Assembly (NCBI GenBank): GCA_030629005.1
Contig: DAOVPV010000005.1
Location: 462-64,461, forward strand
Direction: 5' to 3'
Origin: a bacterium
GTDB taxonomy: Bacteria > Babelota > Babeliae > Babelales > UASB340
DNA: 64,000 bases
Part shown: positions 23 to 57,998 of the stretch, piece after piece
How the letters are laid out: the number at the start of each line of letters is the position of its first letter
How positions within the stretch are numbered: position 1 is the first letter of the stretch
The notes under the pieces: generated by a model
Databases searched by the model: none
The model's input: the letters and a program-made list of their open reading frames with translations, nothing else
Told to the model about the DNA's origin: nothing
Made by a program: the position numbers and the translations under genes

Positions 23-968
23 CAATTCACAAAATATCAATTTACTATCTATAGTAACACCAGTCTTCAATGAAGAAGAAAATATCGAAAAACACCATCA
101 AAACTTAACACTAACTTTATCAAAACTAAAACACTTTAAAAATTATGAAATCATATTCGTAAATGACGGAAGCACAGATAATTCTATAAATATTTTAAAA
201 AAATTAAGCAACATAGATAAAAAATTAAAAATCATAAACTTTACGCGAAACTTTGGGCACGAAGCAGCAACAACGGCCGGCATTAATAATGCAGCAGGTG
301 ATGCTATCGTAATTATAGATGGAGACATGCAAGACCCTACAAAACTAATTCTAGAGTTTGAAAAAGAATACATAAACAACTTTGATATCGTTTACGGTCA
401 ACGTTCAAAACGTTTAAAAGAGTCTTGGCTAAAAAAAATTACATCTAAAGCCTTTTACCCAATATTTAAAGTGTTAACAAAAATAGATATTCCAAAGAAC
501 ACTGGCGATTTTTGTTTAATAAGTCGACGTGCCATCAACATTTTTAATCAACTCCCAGAAAAAAGCCGATTCGTTAGAGGATTAATTTATTGGTCCGGAT
601 TACCAAAAAAAGCAATCTTGTTTGTTCGCAAAGAACGCAATGCAGGACAAACAAAATATAATTATAAAAAATTAACAATATTCGCACTGGAAAATATTAT
701 TTCATTTTCGACAGCACCAATTTATTTTATGATCTTTTTTTCCATGTTTTGTATCACCGCATGTGTTATTGGCGCAATTACCGCTATAATTTTTAGAATT
801 ATGGGATATGTAATAATGCTCGGATGGACATCGCTAATAATTAGTATGTTATTTTTATTTTCTGTAACCCTTTTCTTTTTGGGAATTATAGGTCTTTATA
901 TTGGAAAAATTTTTGAAGAAATAAAAGGTAGACCAACATACCTAATTGAGGAAAAAATCAATTTTTAA
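12..968 (+). CDS. Family-2 glycosyltransferase of the polyprenol-phosphate sugar synthase type (GtrB/ArnC/Dpm1-like)
   Basis: 318-aa ORF with GT-A motifs 'LSIVTPVFNEEENI', 'VNDGSTDNS' and 'DGDMQDP', followed by C-terminal hydrophobic helices. Confidence 0.8.
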   Translation: MFINNSQNINLLSIVTPVFNEEENIEKHHQNLTLTLSKLKHFKNYEIIFVNDGSTDNSINILKKLSNIDKKLKIINFTRNFGHEAATTAGINNAAGDAIVIIDGDMQDPTKLILEFEKEYINNFDIVYGQRSKRLKESWLKKITSKAFYPIFKVLTKIDIPKNTGDFCLISRRAINIFNQLPEKSRFVRGLIYWSGLPKKAILFVRKERNAGQTKYNYKKLTIFALENIISFSTAPIYFMIFFSMFCITACVIGAITAIIFRIMGYVIMLGWTSLIISMLFLFSVTLFFLGIIGLYIGKIFEEIKGRPTYLIEEKINF

Positions 969-2449
969 CTACCATAATAATCAATTTTATCCTCTAATAT
1001 TTCAAAATTAGTTCCAAAATAATGATTAAAAATTAATCTAAAATTATTTACAGGAGAAATAGAATCCCATAACTTTGATTTATCAAAATCTGGTAAACAG
1101 TACGCATTAAACATCGAATATCGTAATTCTTTTATATCATCTTCTGTAAATTTTACCTGAACTCTCGAAGAAAAAAAATTTTCATGCGAACCATGATCAG
1201 CCTGCAATACAATAATTGGCCTTAAACCCGGTTTTTCTAAAATAGAATCAATAAACTCAAGTATTTGTTTATCCATAAAATGTAATTGTTCAATATATGC
1301 TGAATCATTATCAACATATGAATATTGCAAACGACCATCCTTTTTAAAAACAAATGGCATATGTGGACACAAAAAGTGAGAGTAAACAAACTTAGGTCCA
1401 TCTATATTTAATATTTTATTCAAACCATCAAACTGATCTAAATGTTGATTGTACTTAATATAGTTATAAATCCAATTAAGAACACGTCGACTAAACAATT
1501 GATAAATAAATATCTGAGTAAATTCACCAATAAAAAACTTTTTTTTGTAAATATTATTCATATAAGAACTAGGTCCCCACGTATATGAAATATTAATATC
1601 TTTGTAACCTATTTTTTTAAGAAAAAATGCAACATTATTATCTTTTAACATCGGATACGCTAATCCAAAATTTAAATTAATCGTAGTCTTTTTTTTAAAA
1701 TGATATTGTAGATTTAAGGAACTTGGTATAGATAAAACAGTAAAACAATAGTTACTAAAACTCTTTTGTGGTAAATAAAAACCTCTTTTTTTCAAATTAT
1801 TAATAAACCAAGAATCATCATATCCATAATATTTTTTTAAAACATTAGAAGAGGCATGTGCATCAAGTATTATATAATAAATATCTCTTCTATCACTTAA
1901 GGCTAAACAATCATTTAATATTTCAAATGATTTTTCGTGCTGCACTCTAAATCGATTGTTTTCTGAAATATAACTAGAAACATTTGTTCTTATATCAAAA
2001 AAAGAAAATACTGAACTAACCGAATAGAAAAAAATTAAATATAGATAAACCAATGATAAAAACTTAATCAAATTATTATTGATTTCTTTGATAGATAATA
2101 TGAAAACTAATAATGATATAAATAAAAACAAATAAATAAAAAAATAATATTTTGAACTAAAATAACTTAGAAAATTAAAATTTCCATCTAAAACATAAAT
2201 ATATCTATAAATATTTGTAAAAAAATAAACTCCTAGATAAGAAGTGGACAAAAAAATAGCTGCTTTTTTATAATTTCCAATAAATTTTTTCAACAAAAGA
2301 AGAAATATAAAGGCTAAACAAAAAAGAATTATAATCAAAGAAACAAATTCAAAAAAAATAGCTTCACCAACATTTATAGAATATAAATAAATCGCTGGGA
2401 CCAAAAAAGCTAAACAAACATGAACTAAGCTAAAAAAAAACAAACTCAT
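965..2449 (-). CDS. Membrane-anchored sulfatase-like (alkaline phosphatase superfamily; LTA-synthase/phosphoethanolamine-transferase-like) protein, paralogue 1
   Basis: 494 aa; N-terminal multi-TM region, then 'DIYYIILDAHAS' and 'LQADHGSH'; C-terminus 'ISPVNNFRLIFNHYFGTNFEILED' shared with the neighbouring ORF. Confidence 0.65.
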   Translation of the reverse strand: MSLFFFSLVHVCLAFLVPAIYLYSINVGEAIFFEFVSLIIILFCLAFIFLLLLKKFIGNYKKAAIFLSTSYLGVYFFTNIYRYIYVLDGNFNFLSYFSSKYYFFIYLFLFISLLVFILSIKEINNNLIKFLSLVYLYLIFFYSVSSVFSFFDIRTNVSSYISENNRFRVQHEKSFEILNDCLALSDRRDIYYIILDAHASSNVLKKYYGYDDSWFINNLKKRGFYLPQKSFSNYCFTVLSIPSSLNLQYHFKKKTTINLNFGLAYPMLKDNNVAFFLKKIGYKDINISYTWGPSSYMNNIYKKKFFIGEFTQIFIYQLFSRRVLNWIYNYIKYNQHLDQFDGLNKILNIDGPKFVYSHFLCPHMPFVFKKDGRLQYSYVDNDSAYIEQLHFMDKQILEFIDSILEKPGLRPIIVLQADHGSHENFFSSRVQVKFTEDDIKELRYSMFNAYCLPDFDKSKLWDSISPVNNFRLIFNHYFGTNFEILEDKIDYYGS

Positions 2450-2452
2450 TTT

Positions 2453-3958
2453 TTACTCATACTCATTTTGTTCATTTTCTAAAATCTCAAAATCTGTTCC
2501 AAAATATTTATTAAATACAAATCTAAAATTATTAACTGGTGAAATATCATTTGGTAAATCCTTTTTTTCAACACCAGGCAAATGAAATGCACTTAAAATT
2601 CCAAACGTCAAATCCTTTTGATCATCACTTTCAACGTCTATAGAAAAACTATGTTTATCACCATGAGGACCATGATCAGCTTGAACAATAATAATAGGAG
2701 GTTGTTTAGATTCTTTTAAAATAATATCTAACACTTTAGCAATTTCATTATCAATGAATTCTAATTGATTAACATACGCAAATCTATCATTACCTCTAAA
2801 ATAAAGAAACGATCCATTTTTATCAAAAATATAAGGCCTATGGGGACAAAAAAAATGAGTGAAAACAAATTTCGGACTATCTTGTTTTACAACCTTTTTC
2901 AATGTATTTAATTGTCCCAAAATGCTTTGTTGCTTTTGGCTGTCATAATACATATTCAAAAACATTCCAAAGATCGTCTTATTTAAAATTGAATAAAATA
3001 CAGAATAAGAAAAATCAGAAGGAATTGGATAGGAAGCCCCACTCTCTCTTTTTCCAAACTTAGCAGGCCCCCAAACAGATGGTATATTAATAAACTTATA
3101 TCCCAATAAATTTAAAAAATACCGGCTATTACTATTTTTTATAGTATGTGATGCAGAACAAAAAGATAAATCATTATTCTCAGAAATAACTGAATCATAT
3201 TTCATGTTTAAAGAACTAGGAATAGACAAATAAGTATGAGAATAATTACTCATGCTATCTGAAGTAAAATAAAATCCCTTTGTAAGTAATTTTTTCTTAA
3301 AACCCAAAATATCATAATCATAATACTTTTTTAATATATATTCAGATGCATGCGCATCTAAAATTATATAATAAATATCTGGCTTATCAAAAGAAGATAT
3401 TTGTTTCAATTTCTTTAATTGATCTTCATACTTATTTCTAAACTTATCATTATATATATTGTAATGATGAATTTTATTTTGAACCCTAAAATAAGTAAAT
3501 AATCCCCTAATACAAGTAAAAAAAATAAATATACCTAAAAAAATTGTTATCAAATTAAATATTTTTTTATTTACTCGTTTAATCTTTTTGAAAAGAATAA
3601 AAACAATTATAAAAATCAAAAGCCAAATTAAAGAAAAATATCGGGCTCTAAAAAATTTTAAATAACTCCATTTATGAATACCATAAATATTATTATAAAA
3701 CTCAAAGTAAAAATAAACCATCAAATAAAAAACCGATGTAGCAAATGATCCCTTCAAAAAGTCATTATAAATAGACTTAAAAATTAAGAATAAAAAAGCA
3801 TTAATAAAAAACAAACCTAGTATTAAAACTAAAAACTCCGAAATAGGCACTTCACCAATATTAAAAGAGTAGACCGAAAAGGGAATAAGCCACAATAACA
3901 ACGTTGGTTGAATTAAGCCTAATAATAAATCACTCTTAACTATTTTTTTAAAATTCAT
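2453..3958 (-). CDS. Membrane-anchored sulfatase-like protein, paralogue 2 (tandem duplicate)
   Basis: 501 aa; same architecture and motifs ('DIYYIILDAHAS', 'VQADHGPH', 'ISPVNNFRFVFNKYFGTDFEILEN'); 3-nt gap to paralogue 1. Confidence 0.65.
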   Translation of the reverse strand: MNFKKIVKSDLLLGLIQPTLLLWLIPFSVYSFNIGEVPISEFLVLILGLFFINAFLFLIFKSIYNDFLKGSFATSVFYLMVYFYFEFYNNIYGIHKWSYLKFFRARYFSLIWLLIFIIVFILFKKIKRVNKKIFNLITIFLGIFIFFTCIRGLFTYFRVQNKIHHYNIYNDKFRNKYEDQLKKLKQISSFDKPDIYYIILDAHASEYILKKYYDYDILGFKKKLLTKGFYFTSDSMSNYSHTYLSIPSSLNMKYDSVISENNDLSFCSASHTIKNSNSRYFLNLLGYKFINIPSVWGPAKFGKRESGASYPIPSDFSYSVFYSILNKTIFGMFLNMYYDSQKQQSILGQLNTLKKVVKQDSPKFVFTHFFCPHRPYIFDKNGSFLYFRGNDRFAYVNQLEFIDNEIAKVLDIILKESKQPPIIIVQADHGPHGDKHSFSIDVESDDQKDLTFGILSAFHLPGVEKKDLPNDISPVNNFRFVFNKYFGTDFEILENEQNEYE

Positions 3959-17741: not shown

Positions 17742-17794
17742 AATGTAGCCAATTTTTTCAAAAACCAACCCAACTTAACATTAACCAACAACAT

Positions 17795-17957
17795 CGCCCA
17801 ACGCTTACGCATAGGGCTACCACAAAAACGCCTGCTTACGCAGACTCATTGTAAATTATAATTATTTTAGAAATAAAATATCACGTAAATTTATTAAACC
17901 AACATAGCCTGCGTTAGCGGGCGACTCTACGGTAGCCCTATGCGTAAGCGTTGGGCG
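17795..17957. mobile_element. GC-rich inverted-repeat element (REP-pair or MITE-like), same family as 32976-33287
   Basis: Arms 17795-17843 and 17908-17957; outer 27 nt (CGCCCAACGCTTACGCATAGGGCTACC) are perfectly inverted; AT-rich ~64-nt core; GC-rich against the AT-rich background. Confidence 0.8.
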
Positions 17958-18789: not shown

Positions 18790-20950
<2,161 letters not shown>

Positions 20951-20958
<8 letters not shown>

Positions 20959-22306
20959 AGCTCTCTCCTAAGGGACAAGACTTGTATCTAATTCTATACC
21001 AAAACATTTGTAAACCCTGTGCTACTAAAATTATCAATACTGGCTCAAACATCATCCTAAACCTAGCGCACCCATCGTGCCCAGTAATAAATGCAAAATA
21101 AAAAATATAAAAAATCAATAGAAAAAATATTTTAAAATTCCGCCTAACTAATAAAAAAATTAATGCTGCTAAAATTAAAAATATACGCAATAAACTCCAA
21201 ATTACTTCTAAAACCGCAACAAGTTTTACTGTATACAAATCTGTTCCAGATAAAACATAATTGGAAATTCGATCAAAGAATTTACCCTTAAGTTTGAAAA
21301 AGGATAAATCGCCACCTGCTAAATTTTTATTAACTAAAACTTTTAAATTTGTCGAATAAAGCCCAAACATTGTTTTCATTACATTTTTAAACCAAACTTT
21401 TATAAAAATAAAATGATCTTTTGACAAGGTTTGTTTAAAAATTTCGCCAGCCTTATCCCAACTTTTTGAATCTAATTTATTGCCAGGAACAAGCTTTGCC
21501 ATATTTTTTTGTTCAATCTTTTCTGAAGTTTTATTCTTTATTGCCAAAACTTTCGGCAACAAATAAAAATATAAATTCTCTTTTGCAAGAGTCGTCACAC
21601 AAAAATTTCCATAATTTACTTTATTGAAAACAGCATAAGAAATTACAGGAGCATAAAAAGATATTGCAAATAAAACCAAAGCTTTGAAATTTTTAAATTT
21701 GCTCTCTAAACGTAAGGAAGCAAGTAAAATTAATATAAAAAATATAAAATACATTGCTGCAGGCTTTACCCATACAGAAAGACCTAAAACTAATCCAGAA
21801 TAGACTAAATTTCGGTAATTATTTTTATACAAAAATAATACAAAAAAATACAAAAAACTTGTTAATAAAAAAACAAGCAAACTTTCTGTTAAAATGAAAT
21901 TAGAAAAAGTAATAAAGCCCACGTTTAAGCAGGACAAAATAAATGCGATAATAGCCGTACTAAATCCCCAAATTAAATTGGCAATACTAAAAATTAAAAA
22001 ACAAGTCAAAAGCACCAATATAATTTGCATCCAAATAACAGTATTATTCTTGTTACTAAATATTTTATAAATAGTAGCTAAAAACACAGGATAACCCAAA
22101 GAAAAGTATGGCACAGTTTTATCTGCTTCTTTCAAAACAGTTTTACCATGCTTATAAAACTTTTCAGCATTAAAAATATAAGCCTTTGAGTCTATATCTT
22201 GATATGGATCCACATAATTAGTATGGCTAACATAGTTGCTAAGACTTTTTGCTAAAAACAAAAAAACTAAAGAAAATATTATTAAATACATTTCTTTATA
22301 CTTCAC
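20951..22306 (-). CDS. GT-C fold membrane glycosyltransferase (ArnT/PMT family 39/83-like), copy 1
   Basis: 451 aa, more than 10 TM segments; N-terminal loop 'DSKAYIFNAEKF...PYFSLGYPVFLA'; 8-nt overlap with the manC start. Confidence 0.6.
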
Positions 22307-22308
22307 AA

Positions 22309-23793
22309 CTACCCCTTTAATTTTATGAACTTAATTCTTTCTCTTTTTACATGCCCTGCAAAAAATATATTTTCCCTATCAACATTTCCTAAAAAGGTTT
22401 CCACGCGATCAAATGCAGAAATCATTACAGCATCCATTCCATCATATTTATGCAAGCCATTTCTCCCCATCAAATATAAATTATTAAATTTAGAAAGATA
22501 GTTTTTAACAATATTTAGGCTTTCTTTGTAATTTTTATCATAAACAGGATAAGCTTCACGCTCTCTCAAAATCATTCCATCCAAAATTAAATCTTTCTCA
22601 ACTAATCCTATTTTTTCTAATTCTACTTTACCTAATTCTAGAAGCTGGCCATCTGTTTTATTCCATAAATCATCATCAACAAATGCAAAATATTCAAGAC
22701 TTAGACTAGTATGATCTTTGGCATCTATCATCTTTAAAGAAAAATTATTCATATTACCAACACGGCCCATTCGAACCGTTTTTTCATGAATATAAAGCCA
22801 ATGGTCTGGACATATATTTTTTTTATTAACAATAAAATTTACAGTTATTAAACCACGATAAGATAATTTTTTTGCCGCATTAATTATAAACTCTTCTGGC
22901 AATGGATCTAAAGACAAAATCAAATCTCGTAACGGCATTGTTGAGAAAAAAAAGTCTGCATTATATTCATTTAATTTTTTTGTAGGGCAAACTCTAGGAC
23001 TCAAATTATAAGTTAAAATGGACTTCAACGAATTTTTATTATGTTTTATCTGAATAACTTTTTCATTCAAACAAATCTTTGAATTTTTATTATCTTGAAT
23101 AATATTATCAGCCACTCGTTGCCACAAAGTGCCCGCACCAAGCTCAGGGTAATAAAAAATATCTGCCAGAGTCCGAGGAGCACTTTTCCTTGCAAACTTT
23201 CCAAAAAAAGCATAAAAAATTGCTTTGGATAAAGAAAAGCCTTTTATACGTTCACTAGCCCAGTCAGAAGAAATCTCTGTACAAGGAATTCCCCAAACTT
23301 TTTCTGAATATGTTTTAAAAAAAATAGAAAACAAACGATAACCAAATTTATTAGTTACCCAATCTTGAAATGATTTAACATTCTTAATAGGAAAAAATCG
23401 AATCTTTACATAACTAAAAACGCACAAAAAACCTTCTATTAGGCCTAAACCTAAAATTGCATCTAAAGCTTGTAATGGATAGTGAAAAAAGTGGCTTTTG
23501 TAGTAGATCCGAGTGAATCTTTTTAATTGAACAAAATTATTTTCTTTACTCTCTCCCTCCATCACTTTTTTCCACCAAAGTTCTACTTTTTTTGAATGCG
23601 TTAAAAAATGATGTGGCCCTATATCAAACTTGCAACCATTATACGTAATCGTTTTAGAAAGTCCACCAACTTGATTATCTTTTTCTAAAATATTTAAATT
23701 AAACCGTCCGGTCTTTGTTAATTCAGCCCCAGCCGTAAGACCCGCAGGACCAGCTCCTATAACTACAACTTTTTTTTTATTAAACTCATCCAT
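22309..23793 (-). CDS. FAD/NAD(P)-dependent oxidoreductase (amine-oxidase / UDP-galactopyranose-mutase-like fold)
   Basis: 494 aa; N-terminal 'KVVVIGAGPAGLTAGAEL...ILEKDNQVGG' dinucleotide-binding motif. Confidence 0.7.
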   Translation of the reverse strand: MDEFNKKKVVVIGAGPAGLTAGAELTKTGRFNLNILEKDNQVGGLSKTITYNGCKFDIGPHHFLTHSKKVELWWKKVMEGESKENNFVQLKRFTRIYYKSHFFHYPLQALDAILGLGLIEGFLCVFSYVKIRFFPIKNVKSFQDWVTNKFGYRLFSIFFKTYSEKVWGIPCTEISSDWASERIKGFSLSKAIFYAFFGKFARKSAPRTLADIFYYPELGAGTLWQRVADNIIQDNKNSKICLNEKVIQIKHNKNSLKSILTYNLSPRVCPTKKLNEYNADFFFSTMPLRDLILSLDPLPEEFIINAAKKLSYRGLITVNFIVNKKNICPDHWLYIHEKTVRMGRVGNMNNFSLKMIDAKDHTSLSLEYFAFVDDDLWNKTDGQLLELGKVELEKIGLVEKDLILDGMILREREAYPVYDKNYKESLNIVKNYLSKFNNLYLMGRNGLHKYDGMDAVMISAFDRVETFLGNVDRENIFFAGHVKRERIKFIKLKG

Positions 23794-23879
23794 GCTTTCT
23801 CTTTTTTAACCCGACTTCGCAAAAATGTAATTTTATAATCTATTTTTACAATAAAGCTTCGACGGGGTTTCGCATTGAA

Positions 23880-25274
23880 TCATAATTTAAAATTATGATT
23901 CAGCTTCACAAATTTTAACCAGAATTCAATTGATAAGAGTAACAAAATAGGTTCTATTGACAACCTTAATCTTGCAAATCCACAAGACAAAGAAATTATT
24001 ATAAATAAAAGAATAAAAAATATTAACTTAAAAAAAACTAACCTATAATCATGTGAATAGATAGAATTATAAGCAAAACCGAAAAAACCAATTATTAAAA
24101 AAATAAAAAAAATTATCTCAAAATAGATTATTGGAATAACTAATTTATTATTAACTTTTGGAAATAAAAATCTTTTAAATAAGCCTAAAAGACTGCTTTT
24201 ATTTTTATAATCTGGAAGCTTCCCGGAATCTAAAAATAAAATTTCAGAACTATACAAAGAAAAACATGTTTTTAAAACATTTCTTATACTAATTTTTAAC
24301 GCTACAAGTGGATATTTTAAAAAATAACCAAAAGCCAACCTCTCTCCAACAACACTAACTTCAGCATCGTTTAATTTTCTATTTTTTTTAATAGAAATAT
24401 TATTAATAGATTCTTCCCATTTTTTATTAACTTTGCTTAAAGCCACCATGTAAGAAATATTATCTTTTTGCATGCAAATTCTGGCTGCACCATGTTTTAT
24501 AAAATGTATCCCAGGCAAAGTTGAAAAAAATAAGCATCCTGTCAATAAATAGTTACGCAATAACCATGGCAAAACCGCAACAAACCATCCCAAAAATATA
24601 CATGCAATATTTTTAAACTTTATTAATAATTTTACTCGATCAAACTTGAATAGATATAATTTAGGATTATTAAAACCAAGCAAAATTAAAACTATAACTA
24701 GAAATATTAAATAATGACCTACAGGCCTAAACATACTAGCTAAGCCAAGGAATATTCCAGATATAAAAAGTTTTTTGAATGCCAGGAACGGAGACTTAAT
24801 CCGGGATCTAGTCCTTTTATAAAAATAAAAGATTAAAAATATTAAAAAAAATAATAAAAACAGACCATCCGTCATGGCAAGACCAGAAAAAACAACAAAC
24901 CCAACATCAAAACAAGACAATAGCGCTGCCAATTTTGCTAATAAAACATTCGCAGGAAATAACATTAAAGATAAATAAAAAATTAATATTGGAATAAAAC
25001 AAGATAAAATTATTTGTATAATTAACGAATTATTAAAATCATTAAAAATGTTTGTTGCCGCTAAAAATATAGAATACCCAGGCAAGCGGTAAAAATGCGA
25101 GCTACCATCTGCATTTGTTATTGTTTTGTTTTCTATTATTTGCTCAGCAACTTCCTTGTATACACGGCTATCAAATTGCCAAAGGACAAATTTATCTTTC
25201 ACAAAGAAACTAAAAAATAAAAATCTTATAACAAAAGCAAATATAAATATAAAAATAAAAAATTTTTTATTCAC
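23880..25274 (-). CDS. GT-C fold membrane glycosyltransferase (ArnT/PMT-like), copy 2
   Basis: 464 aa; 'FYRLPGYSIFLAA' and 'FRPVGHYLIFL' shared with copy 3; start overlaps the stop of the USP gene by 8 nt. Confidence 0.6.
   Translation of the reverse strand: MNKKFFIFIFIFAFVIRFLFFSFFVKDKFVLWQFDSRVYKEVAEQIIENKTITNADGSSHFYRLPGYSIFLAATNIFNDFNNSLIIQIILSCFIPILIFYLSLMLFPANVLLAKLAALLSCFDVGFVVFSGLAMTDGLFLLFFLIFLIFYFYKRTRSRIKSPFLAFKKLFISGIFLGLASMFRPVGHYLIFLVIVLILLGFNNPKLYLFKFDRVKLLIKFKNIACIFLGWFVAVLPWLLRNYLLTGCLFFSTLPGIHFIKHGAARICMQKDNISYMVALSKVNKKWEESINNISIKKNRKLNDAEVSVVGERLAFGYFLKYPLVALKISIRNVLKTCFSLYSSEILFLDSGKLPDYKNKSSLLGLFKRFLFPKVNNKLVIPIIYFEIIFFIFLIIGFFGFAYNSIYSHDYRLVFFKLIFFILLFIIISLSCGFARLRLSIEPILLLLSIEFWLKFVKLNHNFKL
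24794..24814. repeat. Half-copy of the hairpin element (ACTTAATCCGGGATCTAGTCC) inside GT-C copy 2
   Basis: Matches the outer end of the element at 27644-27677, at the orthologous codons ('TRSRIKS') of the paralogue. Confidence 0.7.
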
Positions 25275-26460
25275 TTAATGCTTTATTTAAACTACGTGTA
25301 TTCTTAAATATACTATTTATTATTTTTTTATTACCCACAACCACATTGTTCAAAATCACACAAGAACATGGTGCAATATTAAAGCCGTCGATTTTTATAT
25401 TACCTGTAATTTCTATATCTTCTAATTTTATAATGTTGTTATTATTTAAATTTGTATTTTCAAGACTTAAATTACCATTAATTTTTTTAGATTTCAGCTC
25501 AACCTTTTGAAACTTTTCGTCTTCTTTAAAATTTGGAGCATAAGTTTCATCAAAAAGATTAACATCTCCGGCTATTTCTTCTTTAAATTCAGGCAACTTT
25601 CTGTAAAAAACAACTACCGGAGTAAAGGATCCCTTATTTTTCAAATTATCACCTAATTTTTTTTCTTCAATTTTTTCGGTACAAATATCATTACAATACC
25701 ACCAGCTATCTAAGCCATCAGACCTTTCCTCTACCAAAGCAGTATAATGCCCAGAACTTGGAGTACGTCCATTATGATAAATTATACCAAAAAGCTCATA
25801 ATTTACGGGAGTTGCAACATCTGTCTGCTCTTCATCAATAGTAATATTTTCATTAATAATAATATTAGTTAAAATTTTAACATCAATTAGGCCTCTTTCT
25901 ATACACATAATAAAAATATTAGGAGTTTTTTTAAATTTCTTCGTAAACTGTTCATTTAATAAATCTTGAAACGATGAATCTTCCTTTATGGTATCAAATA
26001 TCAAAAGATTGAGCTGATCTCGCACATCTGGTCTTGTTAAATTAAAAGAATAAGATAAACAATCTAAATCTACAAAACAAGAATCTTTGCTTAGTATTTT
26101 TGATAAAAGCTTGGCCACAGGATGTTGAGTCCCCCCAAAACCTCCATTTTTATTCAAAGAAAATAAATTATTAAGGACACTTCCATCACACTCATTCTTA
26201 ATATCTAAATGACGACCCTGACTTGTATCTGCCAAATCATTTAAAATTTTACAAAGACATGTTTGTTCTTGATTTTTTTCAATTAATTTATCAAACAAAA
26301 GGTCTTTAAATGAAGCAAGGCATTGTAATGTTGAATTTAAAAAGCATGTGCTACCGTTATTTTGCAGTCCCCTTCTAGCAGATATGTTTTGAAAAAAAAA
26401 TGGAAATATTAAAATTAAAATTATTTTTGTAGTAAAGATTTTATTTATTTTTTTATTCAT
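25267..26460 (-). CDS. Leader-bearing ubiquitin-specific protease (USP/UCH, peptidase C19) homologue
   Basis: Cys box 'GLQNNGSTCFLNSTLQCL'; His box 'YELFGIIYHNGRTPSSGHYTALV' followed by 'WWYCNDICTEKI'; GGAG RBS before the ATG at 26460; hydrophobic leader 'IILILIFPFFFQNISA'. Confidence 0.8.
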   Translation of the reverse strand: MNKKINKIFTTKIILILIFPFFFQNISARRGLQNNGSTCFLNSTLQCLASFKDLLFDKLIEKNQEQTCLCKILNDLADTSQGRHLDIKNECDGSVLNNLFSLNKNGGFGGTQHPVAKLLSKILSKDSCFVDLDCLSYSFNLTRPDVRDQLNLLIFDTIKEDSSFQDLLNEQFTKKFKKTPNIFIMCIERGLIDVKILTNIIINENITIDEEQTDVATPVNYELFGIIYHNGRTPSSGHYTALVEERSDGLDSWWYCNDICTEKIEEKKLGDNLKNKGSFTPVVVFYRKLPEFKEEIAGDVNLFDETYAPNFKEDEKFQKVELKSKKINGNLSLENTNLNNNNIIKLEDIEITGNIKIDGFNIAPCSCVILNNVVVGNKKIINSIFKNTRSLNKALSE

Positions 26461-26511
26461 AAAAACTCCAATCATATAAACACTAAAAATTACATTTTCC
26501 GTATAACAAAA

Positions 26512-28161
26512 TCAAATATCTAATTTGAATATATTTGTATAAAAACCAAATGATACAAGTATTAATAACGGTTCTATTGGCAAGCGCATTCTAGCATAAC
26601 CACCAGCAAGGCCAATTACTAAAAAGAATGAAATAAAGGCAAACATAGAAAAAAATTTTGATTCTAAAACGAACCCTGAATAACAAAATAAATAAACCAA
26701 GAAGCTTCCAAAAACTCCCAACAAAATAAACAAAAACAAAACTATTTCAAAATAAACTAATAATTTTAAATATATATTCTTCGTAGGTGGAATTAAGTAA
26801 CGCTTAAGCAAATCCCAAACCGTTCGTTTATTAGAAAAATAATCTATACTTTGCCTATTATTTTCTAGATATAAAATTTCTGCAGAATACAAAGAAAAGC
26901 TTGTTCTAAATATATCTATTAAAAAATTCTTTATTGTTATAAATGGATATTTCTTAAAATATTTAAACGCTAAATCAAACTGTAAATTACAATATTCTAT
27001 TTCATTTAAATCCCGGCCCAATTCATTTTTTTTCTCTTGAGCCAACAAGCTTACCTTTTTTCTTAAAATTTCTTTAGTTTTATCATAACTGCATCCTTCT
27101 TCTAACATCGCACTACGAGCTGCTGCAAAGTTTAAAAAATGCCCACCAGGTAAAGTATGAAAAAAAACTTGTCCCTGAGCAACATAATTCCTTACAAGCC
27201 AAGGACTAACAACAATTATAAAACCTAAAGTTAAAAATAAACTTTTTTTTATATTTAATTTTAATTTTTTTTTTATATCTGGATCCCCGATCAAGCCGGG
27301 GATGACAAGAGAGATTTTATTATTTTTAAAATTTAAATTATTTAAAAAAATTAAAATCACAGACAAAAATAATAAATAGTGGCCAACAGGACGAACGAGA
27401 CCAGCAAGACCAAGAAATATACCGGCAACAAAAAGATTTTTGAATGCCGAGCTACTACTTCGTTGAAACTTCGAAGTACAAGACGGAGATCCCGGATCGT
27501 AGTCTCCAGTCTTCGCCATGGGCTTCGACGGACAGGCAGGAATGACAGTGCCTACGGCGCTGTTAATGCTACCAGTACCTAACCCAATATTGCTTTCATT
27601 TAACCCATACTTTGTATTGACCAAATAGTGCTCGCTTTCTGCGTTTGTCATCCCGGACTTGATCCGGGATCTAGTCCCTTTATAAAAATAAAAGATCAAA
27701 AAAAATATAAACAAAAATATAAACAAAGTCTCTGACATAAAAAAGCCAGAATATAAAACAAGACCAATTTGAATAGCACTATACAAAGAAGAAAGCTTTG
27801 CCAAAACCAAGCTTTTTGGAAATAAAATTAAAGATAATAAAAAAATCAATACGGGAATTAACGATCCCAAAAGTATTTGAAACCACAAAACATTTTTGGT
27901 ATCCACACCAAATAATTTATAAAAACTAGCCAAAAACATTGGATATCCTGGTAACCGATAAAAATTTTGTTTACCATTTACTGAATAACCATGCCCAGAA
28001 GAAATGCTTTTAGCTATTTTATGATAAGTATTAGAATCTACCTGCCAGTAATTATTATTTTTAGATAAATAACTATTAAAAATGAAGCTTCTAATTAAAA
28101 AAGAAAACACAAATAAAATTAATAAAAAATACTTATGCTCCTTTATCAATCTAATTATCAA
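26512..28161 (-). CDS. GT-C fold membrane glycosyltransferase (ArnT/PMT-like), copy 3, carrying in-frame repeat-element insertions
   Basis: 549 aa; collinear with copy 2 ('FYRLPGYPMFLAS', 'VRPVGHYLLFL') apart from a 66-codon GC-rich insertion and a 'VIPGLIGDP' hairpin insertion. Confidence 0.6.
   Translation of the reverse strand: MIIRLIKEHKYFLLILFVFSFLIRSFIFNSYLSKNNNYWQVDSNTYHKIAKSISSGHGYSVNGKQNFYRLPGYPMFLASFYKLFGVDTKNVLWFQILLGSLIPVLIFLLSLILFPKSLVLAKLSSLYSAIQIGLVLYSGFFMSETLFIFLFIFFLIFYFYKGTRSRIKSGMTNAESEHYLVNTKYGLNESNIGLGTGSINSAVGTVIPACPSKPMAKTGDYDPGSPSCTSKFQRSSSSAFKNLFVAGIFLGLAGLVRPVGHYLLFLSVILIFLNNLNFKNNKISLVIPGLIGDPDIKKKLKLNIKKSLFLTLGFIIVVSPWLVRNYVAQGQVFFHTLPGGHFLNFAAARSAMLEEGCSYDKTKEILRKKVSLLAQEKKNELGRDLNEIEYCNLQFDLAFKYFKKYPFITIKNFLIDIFRTSFSLYSAEILYLENNRQSIDYFSNKRTVWDLLKRYLIPPTKNIYLKLLVYFEIVLFLFILLGVFGSFLVYLFCYSGFVLESKFFSMFAFISFFLVIGLAGGYARMRLPIEPLLILVSFGFYTNIFKLDI
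27281..27309. repeat. Solo hairpin element GGATCCCCGATCAAGCCGGGGATGACAAG, in frame within the CDS
   Basis: 7-bp GC stem (ATCCCCG/CGGGGAT); translates as 'VIPGLIGDP' in a loop absent from the paralogue. Confidence 0.7.
27487..27677. mobile_element. MITE-like composite: two inverted copies of the (CT)AGATCCCGG...GGATGACA hairpin element flanking ~95 nt, in frame within the CDS
   Basis: Left copy 27487-27548 (expanded loop); right copy 27644-27677 (TTTGTCATCCCGGACTTGATCCGGGATCTAGTCC); conspicuously GC-rich compared with the flanks. Confidence 0.65.
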
Positions 28162-32870: not shown

Positions 32871-32975
32871 ATTACTCTAACCATTTCGTCTTTTTATTAA
32901 TAAAATTATTAAACTATTTCAATTAGCTTTGCATCTTTGATGTATAATACAATCCGTTCTACCAGTCAACAATAC

Positions 32976-33287
32976 CGCCCAACGCTTACGCATAGGGCTA
33001 CTACAAATACGCCCGCTCACGCAGGCTTATTCTTTGTAATAGAGCTATGGCGTTCTTCTTGGTTTAAAATATAATTTTTTATTTTTTGTAAAGAACTACG
33101 ATCAACAGGAAAAACACCGTAACCTTGTTGCCAGGAAAAATCAGATAAAAAAATAAACATAATTATTTTTCATAGTTAATCTAACAATTACAACCTAAAT
33201 AAAATCCTATTCTTAAACATTTATCAATAAAAAAAAGCCTGCGTAAGCGGGCGTATTTGTGGTAGCCCTATGCGTAAGCGTTGGGCG
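32976..33287. mobile_element. Decayed REPtron: ~50-nt GC-rich inverted arms enclosing a Y1 (IS200/RAYT-like) transposase remnant
   Basis: Arms 32976-33025 and 33238-33287 match 48/50 as inverted repeats and share the CGCCCAACGCTTACGCATAGGGCTAC core with 17795-17957. Confidence 0.8.
33017..33160 (-). pseudogene. C-terminal remnant of an IS200-like / REP-associated tyrosine transposase
   Basis: 47-codon ORF 'MFIFLSDFSWQQGYGVFPVDRSSLQKIKNYILNQEERHSSITKNKPA' matches the family C-terminal pattern WQxGYxxFSV...YIxNQExHH; the N-terminal HUH part is absent. Confidence 0.65.
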
Positions 33288-33366
33288 ATATTGTTTTCTT
33301 ATATTTTAATATTAATACATTCATAAACCTTATGATTTTAATCATATTTAAAATTAAAATATTTGC

Positions 33367-41512: not shown

Positions 41513-41549
41513 ATTAATATCGTTTTTAATTAATAGAATTATTATATAA

Positions 41550-41626
41550 CTAGATCCTGAAACAAGTTCAGGATGACAATTAAAAAAAAATCACTATTGT
41601 CATCCTAAACTTATTTCAGGATCTAG
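41550..41626. repeat. Inverted pair of AT-shifted hairpin elements (CTAGATCCTGAAACAAGTTCAGGATGACAAT, 15 nt, inverse copy); probable bidirectional terminator
   Basis: Arms 41550-41580 and 41596-41626 match 29/31 as an inverted repeat; lies between convergent genes; same family as 27644-27677. Confidence 0.7.
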
Positions 41627-41632
41627 TCTTTT

Positions 41633-42850
41633 TTAAAAAGTCTTTTGTACCCACTGAAATGGATTTACAGCAACATTGTTAACCCTAAGCTCCCAATGTA
41701 AGTGATAACCATTAGCATAACCAGTCATACCAAGCCTGCCAATCTTATTACCTTTTTTAAGCATATCGCCAATTTCTACATCTGCAAAATCTTCTAAATG
41801 ACAATAAATTGTAAATACACCAACACCGTGATCTATTACAATAGTATTTCCTGTTAATAAAAAGCGATCTTTAATAATAATTCTGCCAGCCTGACTTGCC
41901 CAAACCACACTCTTTGGCGAATTTAAAATATCAACAGCCTTGTGCAAATAATGCCCTTTTTCTGGAGTAGTTCGAACTTCACCAAAATAGGTAGTCACTC
42001 GTTTAACATCTATAGGCATTTCAAATCTTCCAGACCAAAGTTTTTTATTTGGAGAATCTTGTAACCATTTTTCTATAGCATCTTCCAAAATTTTATTGCT
42101 CATGCTAACTTCTTTTTCTTCTTCAAGTTTTTCCCTGTCTACAATAAAACCTTTCTGCCTTGGAAAATTATACTCCTGAATATCAACTCTACTTGCAAGG
42201 CTCATTTCGTTACCAACAAAGTCTTTTAACCTAGCATTCAAAAGATATTCACCTGCATTTAAATCACAATCTACAGGAATAAAGCATTCGTAAATGTTTG
42301 CATATTCAGATTCAGGATAAAACTTATATTTTTTTTCCAAAAATTGAACATCTAGTTTTTCTACCCTTTTATTCGTCTGAACTTTAGCATGAATTGTATG
42401 TCCCTGAGCAACCTTATATTCTTGGTTTAAAAATGCAGCCTTAAGGTCACTATTATCTACAATAAACTCTATGGTTTCTTCATTTCTATTTTTGTTTCTG
42501 CTAGAGTCTATAATTGCCACATTCAAAGTATGTTTTCCATCAGAAAGATCCACTGTGTCTATTTTAAATGGCAAATTAAAAACCTTTTTACCTATATTTC
42601 TAGAACCATCCACATCAACATGATCGCCATCCAAAAATACAGATATTAAATCAATTTTATATCCATTATTAGAATTTATAGCAACAGAAACCTCGCCTGC
42701 AACATATCCATCCTTTTTTATACCAGTAAGCATAATATCTGGCAGCTCAGAATGAGTAAAATAAGAAAAAACTTTAAGCCCTAAAAAACCTGTAATAAAT
42801 AAGACAAAACCAAAAAAAACTGGGAATTTTAACCTATCAAACATAAACAA
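41633..42850 (-). CDS. M23 family metallopeptidase (LytM-type) with N-terminal TM helix and beta-rich middle region
   Basis: 405 aa; 'HKAVDI' (HxxxD) and 'GYHLHWELR' (HxH). Confidence 0.8.
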   Translation of the reverse strand: MFMFDRLKFPVFFGFVLFITGFLGLKVFSYFTHSELPDIMLTGIKKDGYVAGEVSVAINSNNGYKIDLISVFLDGDHVDVDGSRNIGKKVFNLPFKIDTVDLSDGKHTLNVAIIDSSRNKNRNEETIEFIVDNSDLKAAFLNQEYKVAQGHTIHAKVQTNKRVEKLDVQFLEKKYKFYPESEYANIYECFIPVDCDLNAGEYLLNARLKDFVGNEMSLASRVDIQEYNFPRQKGFIVDREKLEEEKEVSMSNKILEDAIEKWLQDSPNKKLWSGRFEMPIDVKRVTTYFGEVRTTPEKGHYLHKAVDILNSPKSVVWASQAGRIIIKDRFLLTGNTIVIDHGVGVFTIYCHLEDFADVEIGDMLKKGNKIGRLGMTGYANGYHLHWELRVNNVAVNPFQWVQKTF

Positions 42851-57934: not shown

Positions 57935-57965
57935 AATTTTACCCTAGTGTTAGAAATTACTATAT

Positions 57966-57998
57966 GAAGAGATCCTGAAATAAATTCAAGATCTCTTC
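57966..57998. repeat. Solo AT-shifted hairpin element (GAAGAGATCCTGAAATAAATTCAAGATCTCTTC)
   Basis: 9-bp stem; the core AGATCCTGAAATAAATTCAAGAT resembles the arm at 41550-41580. Confidence 0.5.

Follow-up and report, generated by a model that had tools for sequence, protein, structure and literature searches.

The question raised by this locus is how two neighbouring glycosyltransferase genes of a GC-poor bacterium, otherwise collinear, came to differ by a GC-rich block of 66 codons that carries hairpin-like sequence at its edges. The window analysed here, part of a 110.6-kb metagenomic scaffold (ENA ERZ23498683 scaffold_40), is a 64,000-nt stretch of contig DAOVPV010000005.1 (assembly GCA_030629005.1, positions 462 to 64,461), the genes of which have their closest relatives among sequences named Candidatus Dependentiae or Babeliales, and the block lies in the longer of two GT-C-type paralogues. 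The extra DNA very probably consists of units of the NTS-like superfamily of CGTC-tagged repetitive extragenic palindromes (REPs) and SRM hairpins, inserted in frame in Dependentiae genes. The repeat family shows base-pair covariation in its stems, and its copies are inserted relative to orthologues, in open frames and at positions predicted to be loops. The insertion of repeats is real and represents a known phenomenon in a bacterial group that is new for it; hairpin repeats of this widespread family first came to notice in Rickettsia and Neisseria. The genes concerned belong to a set of three GT-C-type paralogues, all encoded on the minus strand within one polysaccharide gene cluster:

26512-28161, minus strand: long GT-C glycosyltransferase paralogue, the carrier of the inserts (549 amino acids (aa) from a TTG start; 532 aa in the database call)
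23880-25274, minus strand: short GT-C paralogue (464 aa)
20951-22306, minus strand: third, more distant paralogue (PMT_2 match, E = 3e-11), without a unit at either site and serving as the uninserted reference

The long and short paralogues share 42% aa identity and are collinear apart from two extra segments in the long gene, in agreement with the first-pass annotation of this DNA. At the first site, the stretch between the shared strings TGAATGCC and ACTTRATCCGGGATCTAG measures 208 nt in the long gene (27449-27656) and 10 nt in the short one (24784-24793), a difference of 198 nt or exactly 66 codons through which the reading frame stays open; these coordinates and counts had been given correctly at first reading, as had the marked GC richness of the extra DNA (48.6% GC, against 25.6% for the remainder of the long gene and 29.3% for the window). 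At the second site, the long gene carries a single hairpin. The elements of the two sites are as follows:

27645-27674, minus strand: intact hairpin unit 1 of a head-to-head pair (0 motif mismatches; covariance model E = 1.6e-17)
27549-27644, minus strand: spacer between the two units of the pair (96 nt, 42.7% GC), encoding NAESEHYLVNTKYGLNESNIGLGTGSINSAVGT
27487-27548, minus strand: decayed or loop-expanded unit 2 of the pair, with a 12-nt terminal repeat that pairs with unit 1
27449-27486, minus strand: remaining extra DNA beside the pair (38 nt), corresponding to a separate 30-nt (10-codon) difference from the short paralogue
27279-27308, plus strand: solo hairpin unit in the second loop of the long gene (1 motif mismatch; covariance model E = 1.1e-11)

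Unit 1 reads on the coding strand, tail first, CTAG ATCCCGGA TCAAG TCCGGGAT GACAA and encodes TRSRIKSGMT; its fold of -8.4 kcal/mol (z = -3.5) was equalled in stability by 0 of 200 shuffles. Unit 2 lies head-first on the coding strand (CTGTC ATTCCTGCC ...GTCGAAG... GATCCGGGATCT, encoding VIPACPSKPMAKTGDYDPGS) and keeps its tail and first arm (AGATCCCGGATC) and its head (GGAATGACAG) about 40 nt apart. Taken alone it folds no better than shuffled sequence (z = +0.77), and it resembles the loop-expanded unit found in a GT4 gene of the same contig (local alignment score of 29.5, a value that 3 of 1000 shuffles attain). When the region is folded at minimum energy, the two ends of the block pair with each other via the 12-nt terminal inverted repeat, and the block is therefore read as a head-to-head pair of which the second unit is decayed or loop-expanded. 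The proposal that the block is bounded by inverted copies of a hairpin thus holds for the right-hand copy, which is intact, and needs qualifying for the left-hand copy, which is not a hairpin as it stands. Junction-spanning peptides include GTRSRIKSGMTNAE and SLVIPGLIGDPD. A small unrelated hairpin, TACTTCG-N9-CGAAGTA at 27456-27478, occurs only once in the window. That the block as a whole is a longer MITE (a miniature transposable element with inverted repeats) was considered and rejected, as a blastn search with the whole insert against 120 unit-bearing loci matched only the 30-nt unit.

The solo unit, which had been proposed to add VIPGLIGDP to another loop, is an intact unit and a clean 33-nt (11-codon) insertion, encoding LVIPGLIGDPD and appearing as one single 33-nt gap in the DNA alignment with the orthologue P0002.

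The unit itself is a hairpin of 28-30 nt that reads, head-first, (T)TGTC / ATCCNNNN / 5-nt loop / NNNNGGAT / CTA(G), in which the TGTC head and the CTA(G) tail are unpaired and the stem, of 8 bp, opens with an A-T and a T-A pair. With up to 3 mismatches tolerated, the window contains four occurrences of the motif CTAGATCC-N13-GGATGACAA, where 0.02 would be expected by chance; two of the copies are in the long GT-C gene and the other two form an inverted pair between convergent genes. The stems of the copies differ by compensating changes (CCCGGA/TCCGGG, CCCCGG/TCGGGG with one mismatch, and CCTGAA/TTCAGG), and single units have fold energies of -6.5 to -8.4 kcal/mol. A covariance model was built from 52 distinct units of other genomes and applied to about 80 kb of the contig, made up of the window with 10 kb of sequence on its left (L124) and 5.6 kb on its right (L125), where it detected exactly six units with E values of 1e-11 to 1e-17. 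In the 52-unit alignment, 6 of the 8 stem pairs vary on both sides and the covariation is 0.54 versus 0.18 in shuffled alignments (0 of 500 shuffles reach it), with the reservation that the inner four pairs were pre-selected for complementarity, the unbiased figure being that of the exact-flank scan given below; pairs 1 and 2 are A-U and U-A in 51 of the 52 units. On the contig, TGTC stands directly 5' of the stem in five of the six intact units and GGTC in one, the 5-nt loops are CTTGA, CTTGT or CTTAT, and all units have a tail, which is CTA in four and CCA in two (the solo unit and one of the AsnB units described next). The tally on the contig is six intact and at least four decayed copies at six sites, which include three beyond the GT-C genes:

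41550-41626, unstranded: head-to-head pair in the intergenic DNA of two convergent genes, with TGAA stems and 17 nt between the units (covariance model E = 1.5e-17 and 1.3e-14)
L124 2674-2793, about 7.2 kb left of the window start: head-to-head pair, in frame, in an AsnB-like gene (1488-3491, minus strand)
L124 830-912: loop-expanded unit, in frame (…ILKQPFDYAQDRIQDDPAVAKGYGGHGKR…), in a GT4 glycosyltransferase gene (267-1484, minus strand)

In all three pairs on the contig (intergenic, long GT-C and AsnB) the heads face each other. The 97-nt stretch that holds the intergenic pair (41540-41636) folds into one long hairpin (-25.4 kcal/mol, z = -10), the arms being inverted repeats of 28-32 nt that are 94% complementary. 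The pair in the AsnB-like gene is complete, with a 56-nt GC-rich spacer, and is translated as WILKQVQDD-PAVALSSYGGHGKRSIRVL-CHPELVSGS (…WILKQVQDDPAVALSSYGGHGKRSIRVLCHPELVSGS…); its GC content is 50% against 30% for the gene, it sits in the interdomain linker according to an alignment with PDB entry 1CT9, and a protein search with the insert peptide gave no match among 5.8 billion proteins. The unit in the GT4 gene has its loop enlarged by a 28-nt piece resembling the second unit class described below and is followed by a spacer of about 50 nt, the same as that of the AsnB insert, encoding QDDPAVAKGYGGHGKR. This shared spacer indicates that a composite of unit and spacer has been copied on at least two occasions, in the manner of a MITE. 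The AsnB spacer has no significant similarity to that of the GT-C insert (score 22 versus a shuffle median of 21). The repeating element is the 30-nt hairpin, with MITE-like pair-plus-spacer composites on the contig, but the spacer of the GT-C pair is unique.

The open reading frames (ORFs) of the long GT-C, short GT-C, AsnB-like and GT4 genes are open through their inserts. Only three of the six frames of the unit are open and each intragenic copy is in one of these; in the one case where the canonical CTAG tail would make a stop codon, the tail is CTGG. Of the six intact units on the contig four are intragenic; in other low-GC loci this holds for 3 of 38 hairpin units. No consistent direct repeat of the kind left by target-site duplication is shared by the flanks of the four insertions, and scans of the window with Rfam and for tRNAs found nothing.

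The motif had been expected to recur elsewhere in the genome if the reading was correct, and further copies do exist, both within the window and on the rest of the contig, as well as in numerous other genomes. When species-representative genomes were scanned for exact occurrences of the unit's 17 flank bases, at least 119 loci were returned, with 126 matches listed. Among these listed matches, 52 are hairpins in which all four free inner pairs are complementary (a chance of about 0.4% each), with at least 12 different stems, and none of the 126 looks random. The hosts among the matches listed include Dependentiae, Patescibacteria, Bacteroidota, Alpha- and Gammaproteobacteria, Rickettsiales, Acidobacteriota, Nitrospirota, Firmicutes and others, and units with the same flanks were present in two Rickettsiales metagenome-assembled genomes (MAGs; L060 and L095). 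The 32-nt TGAA unit of the window (41548-41579) is 100% identical in two Patescibacteria MAGs and a Winogradskyella chromosome (L010, L070 and L086), an identity across phyla for which either recent exchange or very strong constraint on the unit would account. A unit adjoins the groES-groEL operon in four loci of different phyla (L026, L044, L049 and L062). There was no exact unit match in 2.9 million viral contigs, and a phage vector for the units was dropped as a candidate for this reason.

Clustering of the ORFs near units, done with no expectation beforehand, brought out a stand-alone GIY-YIG protein of about 95-110 aa (PF01541, assigned by matches with E ~1e-15) that is bracketed by units in three phyla. 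In 54 of 80 metagenomic loci with GIY-YIG relatives a unit lies within 200 nt of the gene, in 24 of them on both sides, and the unit density is 2.7 per kb near the gene versus 0.15 per kb elsewhere. Five of six GIY-YIG loci of Flavobacteriaceae are flanked by hairpin units of the same architecture (L031, L211, L218, L219 and L220, and not L206). One of these, from Mariniflexile aquimaris (L218 1-3333, JBHTIB010000012.1), has two tandem Ssn-like GIY-YIG genes in an array of 24 hairpin units, in which two subtypes alternate in opposite orientation and each GIY-YIG gene ends inside a unit, a layout similar to the mosaic REP clusters of E. coli. The flanking of GIY-YIG genes by units is an independent confirmation of an arrangement already published by Chenal et al. 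2025 (PMC11893778), and the idea that the GIY-YIG protein is an undescribed partner enzyme of CGTC REPs was abandoned because that study contains the association. In that work, the Ssn proteins (stand-alone GIY-YIG, cd10448) are site-specific nucleases of single-stranded DNA (ssDNA), with genes flanked by NTS/SRM hairpins; Ssn binds the hairpin, cuts a few nucleotides upstream and modulates transformation in Neisseria meningitidis, and symbionts such as Rickettsia and Wolbachia are over-represented among genomes rich in SRMs. The published SRM pattern, HGTCWYN(0-2)YYVSBRHN(0-5)WNVSBRGN(0-2)RNCYNB, occurs in the 80 kb exactly at 27279-27307 and 27646-27674 (Markov-shuffle mean of 0.02), so that both GC-stem units of the long GT-C gene, the solo unit and unit 1, fit it. 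A second unit class has the same 17 flank bases and a core, YTCGCTNCGCTCR, that pairs over only 5 bp. It makes up 68 of the 126 matches listed, and the hosts of these 68 are mainly Acidobacteriota, Desulfobaccales, Nitrospirales and candidate phyla. Units of this class flank Ssn-like GIY-YIG genes in L040, L102 and most of L126-L205 and are outside the published SRM pattern.

Comparison with the nearest homologues bears on whether the units of the GT-C gene are insertions. At the site of the block the long protein has 83 residues and its closest relatives 4-24, with 24 residues in P0002 (68% identical and syntenic), 4 in P0007 and in P0009 and 8 in P0012. The absence of the segment from close relatives, proposed at first reading as a check, is thus borne out, and the units are insertions relative to orthologues. 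An AlphaFold2 model of the long protein from 122 aligned sequences (mean predicted local distance difference test (pLDDT) score of 86.5, predicted template modelling score of 0.87) has coil at residues 160-235 (pLDDT 38-53) and at residues 276-293 (pLDDT 55-78). Both inserts thereby fall in low-confidence coil between helices, which places them in predicted loops between transmembrane helices, the kind of position anticipated for them. The PMT_2 match of the long paralogue is weak and a profile of the GT-C family had no match among PDB sequences; the top Foldseek matches of the model are all GT-C enzymes (AglB, ArnT, PglB, STT3 and Pmt), and homologues carry names such as Dependentiae or Babeliales GT39/ArnT-like. 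The template modelling scores of 0.3-0.45 confirm the GT-C fold only and are too loose to decide on which side of the membrane the loops lie; a cytoplasmic location is suggested by the short loops rich in K/R and by where the conserved D42, E144, R257 and H261 lie.

The loop that holds the block has been hit repeatedly, as indicated by two related loci and apparently by a third homologue. In locus L122 (6001-8818, JGI Ga0209417_1000074) P0002 and an adjacent paralogue each have one unit at the same loop, in opposite orientation to that of the window and with a TGAA stem (CDCHPELVSGS). These tandem paralogues share 86-100% DNA identity over about 150 codons that include the unit and 33-85% elsewhere; to judge from the alignment, the high-identity stretch is clearly interpretable as a gene-conversion tract, with the unit inside it near its upstream edge. 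In P0008, which comes from another sample and is 57% identical, the same loop of the protein holds two units arranged head-to-head, their stems being ATCCCGGA and their loops 6 nt long; this pair brackets 75 AT-rich nucleotides that still encode an ancestral Cys motif (RFCSGIC). P0067 appears to contain two units of another CGTC type, as read from the peptides FLRKQESS and WIPASAGMT.

The short paralogue of the window retains a trace of the same insert:

24784-24811, minus strand: unit remnant made up of tail, first arm and loop (coding strand ACTAGATCCCGGATTAAG; repeat family D6)

The remnant runs straight into TCTCCGT, a 7-mer that in the long gene is located past the far end of the pair. 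The short gene can therefore be derived from a long-like state by an internal deletion of 168 nt (56 codons) plus the separate 30-nt difference. As the long protein is 42% identical to the short one and 68% identical to P0002, which carries a different unit in opposite orientation, the insertion is taken to be younger than the duplication. Gene conversion from the long paralogue one gene away, with a deletion afterwards, best accounts for the remnant in the short gene and would fit better than either of the origins first suggested, namely insertion before the duplication with partial deletion, or a reusable target site. Nucleotide identity between the long and short genes peaks at 79-86% beside the site versus 33-73% elsewhere; since the peak region is also the most conserved in the family, the conversion step is one that we infer. 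Slippage between two ATCCCGGA repeats was rejected as the origin of the short state, as it predicts a loss of 161 nt and 168 nt are missing.

The explanation proposed for these features is as follows. Units would multiply in genomes as singles or as head-to-head pairs with a spacer, and would spread via single-stranded hairpin intermediates, perhaps with the involvement of an Ssn-type nuclease. In a gene-dense Dependentiae genome with 29% GC, copies have landed inside genes, where selection would presumably have acted as a filter, the survivors being in-frame, stop-free copies in tolerant loops. The long GT-C gene would have kept one solo unit (+11 codons) together with a head-to-head pair and its spacer, of which the second unit decayed and which with a further 30 nt would account for the 66 extra codons. 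The short paralogue would hold an internally deleted copy of the same insert, most likely obtained by gene conversion from the long paralogue, with decay after insertion being the probable source of both the state of unit 2 and the remnant. The inserts are presumably neutral for the enzyme.

Several results weigh against this explanation. A profile hidden Markov model of three unit-flanked GIY-YIG proteins gave no match in the window, L124, L125 or other Dependentiae loci (about 70 kb), and a tblastn search with an approximate IS200 TnpA query, which is a weak negative, gave no match to a Y1 transposase in 986 kb of unit-bearing loci plus the window; with neither an Ssn-like gene nor a Y1 transposase found in the 80 kb, current mobility of the units in this organism is unsupported. 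The copy counts pertain to some 80 kb of this genome, and none of the four TGAA-stem units fits the published SRM pattern. Within the block, unit 2 is too decayed to be detected by the covariance model, and blastn found no DNA similar to the GT-C spacer in any of the 120 fetched unit-bearing loci, so that arrival of the spacer together with the units cannot be shown. The insert of the long paralogue is covered by only one assembly.

A more active role can be envisaged for the units, as sites at which nicking or formation of ssDNA hairpins would seed gene conversion and re-insertion at the same codons. This would explain why at least four Dependentiae lineages have been hit in one loop by units with different stems and orientations, and also the position of the L122 unit within a conversion tract and the peak of identity between the long and short genes beside the unit site in the window. 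Such a role is unlikely, though worth bearing in mind; if true, it would amount to a Neisseria-like control of recombination by a repeat-gene-repeat arrangement, operating inside coding sequence at a surface-glycan locus of an intracellular bacterium. It is somewhat more doubtful still that the inserts were kept because they promote recombination or gene conversion, or modulate DNA uptake, at the surface-glycan locus in the manner of the Neisseria NTS. Four genes of one polysaccharide cluster carry units, the intragenic share of the intact units on the contig (4 of 6) exceeds that in other low-GC loci (3 of 38), the L122 unit lies near the upstream edge of a tract of 86-100% identity between paralogues that are otherwise 33-85% identical, and NTS-gene-NTS arrangements lower transformation in N. 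meningitidis (PMC11893778), all of which would accord with such a function. However, no Ssn gene was found in the available sequence (80 kb), the conversion tracts also span the most conserved helices so that the identity peak in the window is ambiguous, and the decay of unit 2 and of the copy in the short paralogue speaks against selection on the hairpins.

The other reading to be weighed against insertion of units with their spacer is that the extra segment is mostly the remnant of an ancestral long loop, into which two units were inserted separately, leaving only about 60 nt as foreign. Long loops are indeed the rule in the wider family: 87 of 119 homologues have 45-100 residues at the block site, at least 56 of them with a conserved H..C...C..C pattern, and in P0008 the units bracket the stretch with the Cys motif, so that units can insert on either side of host sequence. 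The result that had been named in advance as refuting the insertion, conservation of the segment in distant homologues, was not obtained: most of these do have a long loop there, but it is unrelated in sequence to the block. In particular, the spacer has no similarity to the conserved HLFFC...C..ICSG loop and its GC content is 42.7% versus 25.6% for the gene. The loops of P0002, P0007, P0009 and P0012 are 4-24 residues long, and the short loops of these nearest relatives indicate that the immediate ancestor was probably short-looped. A largely ancestral origin of the block is accordingly improbable. The ancestral loop itself (columns of residues 161-243) has a conserved His and three Cys residues, HLFFC…C..ICSG, and about a quarter of the family, this lineage among them, has lost the loop; it is possibly a small metal-binding or disulfide module. 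Least credible, to the point of being nearly dismissible, is a metagenome assembly artefact in the form of a chimeric join at the repeated hairpin, for although the contig is a metagenomic scaffold, repeats cause misjoins and the records contain a single contig encoding the long protein, the block is free of stops, in frame and flanked on both sides by collinear gene sequence, P0008 has the same pair architecture in this loop and derives from an independent organism and sample, and an independent Logan assembly (L002) corroborates the short paralogue with its remnant, window 20153-25139 being matched at 99.96%.

Some further features of the locus are recorded here for completeness. The long and short paralogues are separated by a gene for a ubiquitin C-terminal hydrolase (UCH) of eukaryotic type (25267-26475, minus strand; Pfam UCH, E = 1.5e-22), whereas in the related locus L122 the GT-C paralogues directly adjoin, with no UCH gene between them. 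An exact database look-up gave no record of the long protein from its TTG start or of this UCH neighbour. At 57962-57996 on the plus strand a terminator-like hairpin has the stem-loop core of the units, ATCCTGAA ATAAA TTCAAGAT, without head or tail, in a 14-bp extended stem followed by a T-run; the covariance model matches only its stem-loop (E = 5e-4), and by its looks it is an intrinsic terminator that either arose from a unit or gave rise to one. The intergenic DNA of the window also holds a GC-rich repeat family unrelated to the units, at 17787-17957 and 32968-33295, with inverted arms of 52-86 nt (CGCCCAACGCTTACGCATAGGGCTAC...) that are 85-89% complementary; the arms enclose 59 nt at one of the sites and 180 nt of AT-rich DNA at the second, and the family looks MITE-like.

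In-frame insertion of palindromic repeats, best known from Rickettsia, thus extends to the Dependentiae as a second, unrelated lineage of AT-rich intracellular bacteria, with the same CGTC REP/SRM superfamily at work in both. A single protein loop that holds different copies across lineages, and for which uninserted relatives are available, provides a compact natural case for the study of how inserts are tolerated and how they decay. The published SRM pattern misses both the units with AT-rich stems and the second class that flanks Ssn-like genes, and surveys of the SRM-Ssn system probably undercount low-GC phyla. For annotation, peptides such as VIPGLIGDP, TRSRIKSGMT, CHPELVSGS and ILKQVQDD should be regarded as encoded by repeats and not as domain sequence.

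Among known repeat systems, a classical MITE shares with the units found here the terminal inverted repeats, represented by the pair arms of 28-32 nt, and differs in its target-site duplication. The GTAG REPs and REPINs are mobilised by RAYT (TnpA-REP) tyrosine transposases. They resemble the present units in being short tagged hairpins that form inverted doublets able to fold into one long hairpin, and the REPIN-RAYT system also resembles the SRM class in having a single-copy nuclease gene embedded among its own repeats. However, the 5' GT[AG]G tag of GTAG REPs is absent here, where the corresponding positions read CTAG or CCAG and the other end TGTC, and the partner enzymes differ, being a GIY-YIG nuclease for the CGTC/SRM class and an HUH-Y1 transposase for GTAG REPs.

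The Rickettsia palindromic elements (RPEs; Ogata et al. 2000), as outlined in PMC10969869 and PMC3733652, insert in frame in unrelated genes of an obligate intracellular, AT-rich bacterium; RPE-1, the classic example, is palindromic over about 100-150 bp and encodes a conserved peptide of its own. On that account the resemblance lies in the in-frame location in housekeeping or metabolic genes, at positions compatible with the fold, and in the AT-rich intracellular host; the differences are in size, the units here being 30 nt and the composites 80-190 nt as against about 100-150 bp for RPE-1, and in the host phylum. The behaviour like that of Rickettsia elements recognised in the first-pass annotation is upheld by the open in-frame ORFs, by the loop positions and by membership of the same superfamily as RPE-4 and RPE-6. 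This link to RPEs is supported through the placement of RPE-4 and RPE-6 among the CGTC REPs in PMC3733652.

With the SRM/NTS hairpins, the units share the same head, stem, loop and tail architecture, and in other bacteria such units, a few of them with the ATCCTGAA stem of the window, flank Ssn-like genes. In contrast to that system, no ssn gene was found in the 80 kb available, and the units with TGAA stems and those with the YTCGCTNCGCTCR core are outside the published pattern. Chenal et al. 2025 (PMC11893778) make no mention of intragenic copies, Dependentiae or Bacteroidota, and a literature search found no paper linking Dependentiae with such repeats.

The closest match is with the CGTC REPs of Di Nocera, De Gregorio & Rocco 2013 (PMC3733652), which have an unpaired CGTC, TGTC or CCTC head, stems of 8-9 bp starting with A-T and T-A, loops of 4-5 nt and a 3-nt tail with the consensus CCA. 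According to the same source, they occur mostly as head-to-head dimers with spacers of 20-100 bp, typically between convergent genes, with single and paired in-frame intragenic copies in several species; they have no known dedicated transposase and were reported from five phyla, Dependentiae not among them. Of the families CGTC-1 to CGTC-4, R. conorii RPE-6 and the Neisseria dRS3 are assigned to CGTC-1 and R. conorii RPE-4 to CGTC-4. The units described here differ in their mostly CTA rather than CCA tail, in the AT-rich (TGAA) stems of some and in their Dependentiae host. They agree in the TGTC variant of the head, the 8-bp stem beginning A-T/T-A, the 5-nt loop, the 3-nt tail, the head-to-head pairs, the position between convergent genes and the in-frame intragenic singles and pairs, so that, judged by these described features, they display every structural trait of CGTC REPs.

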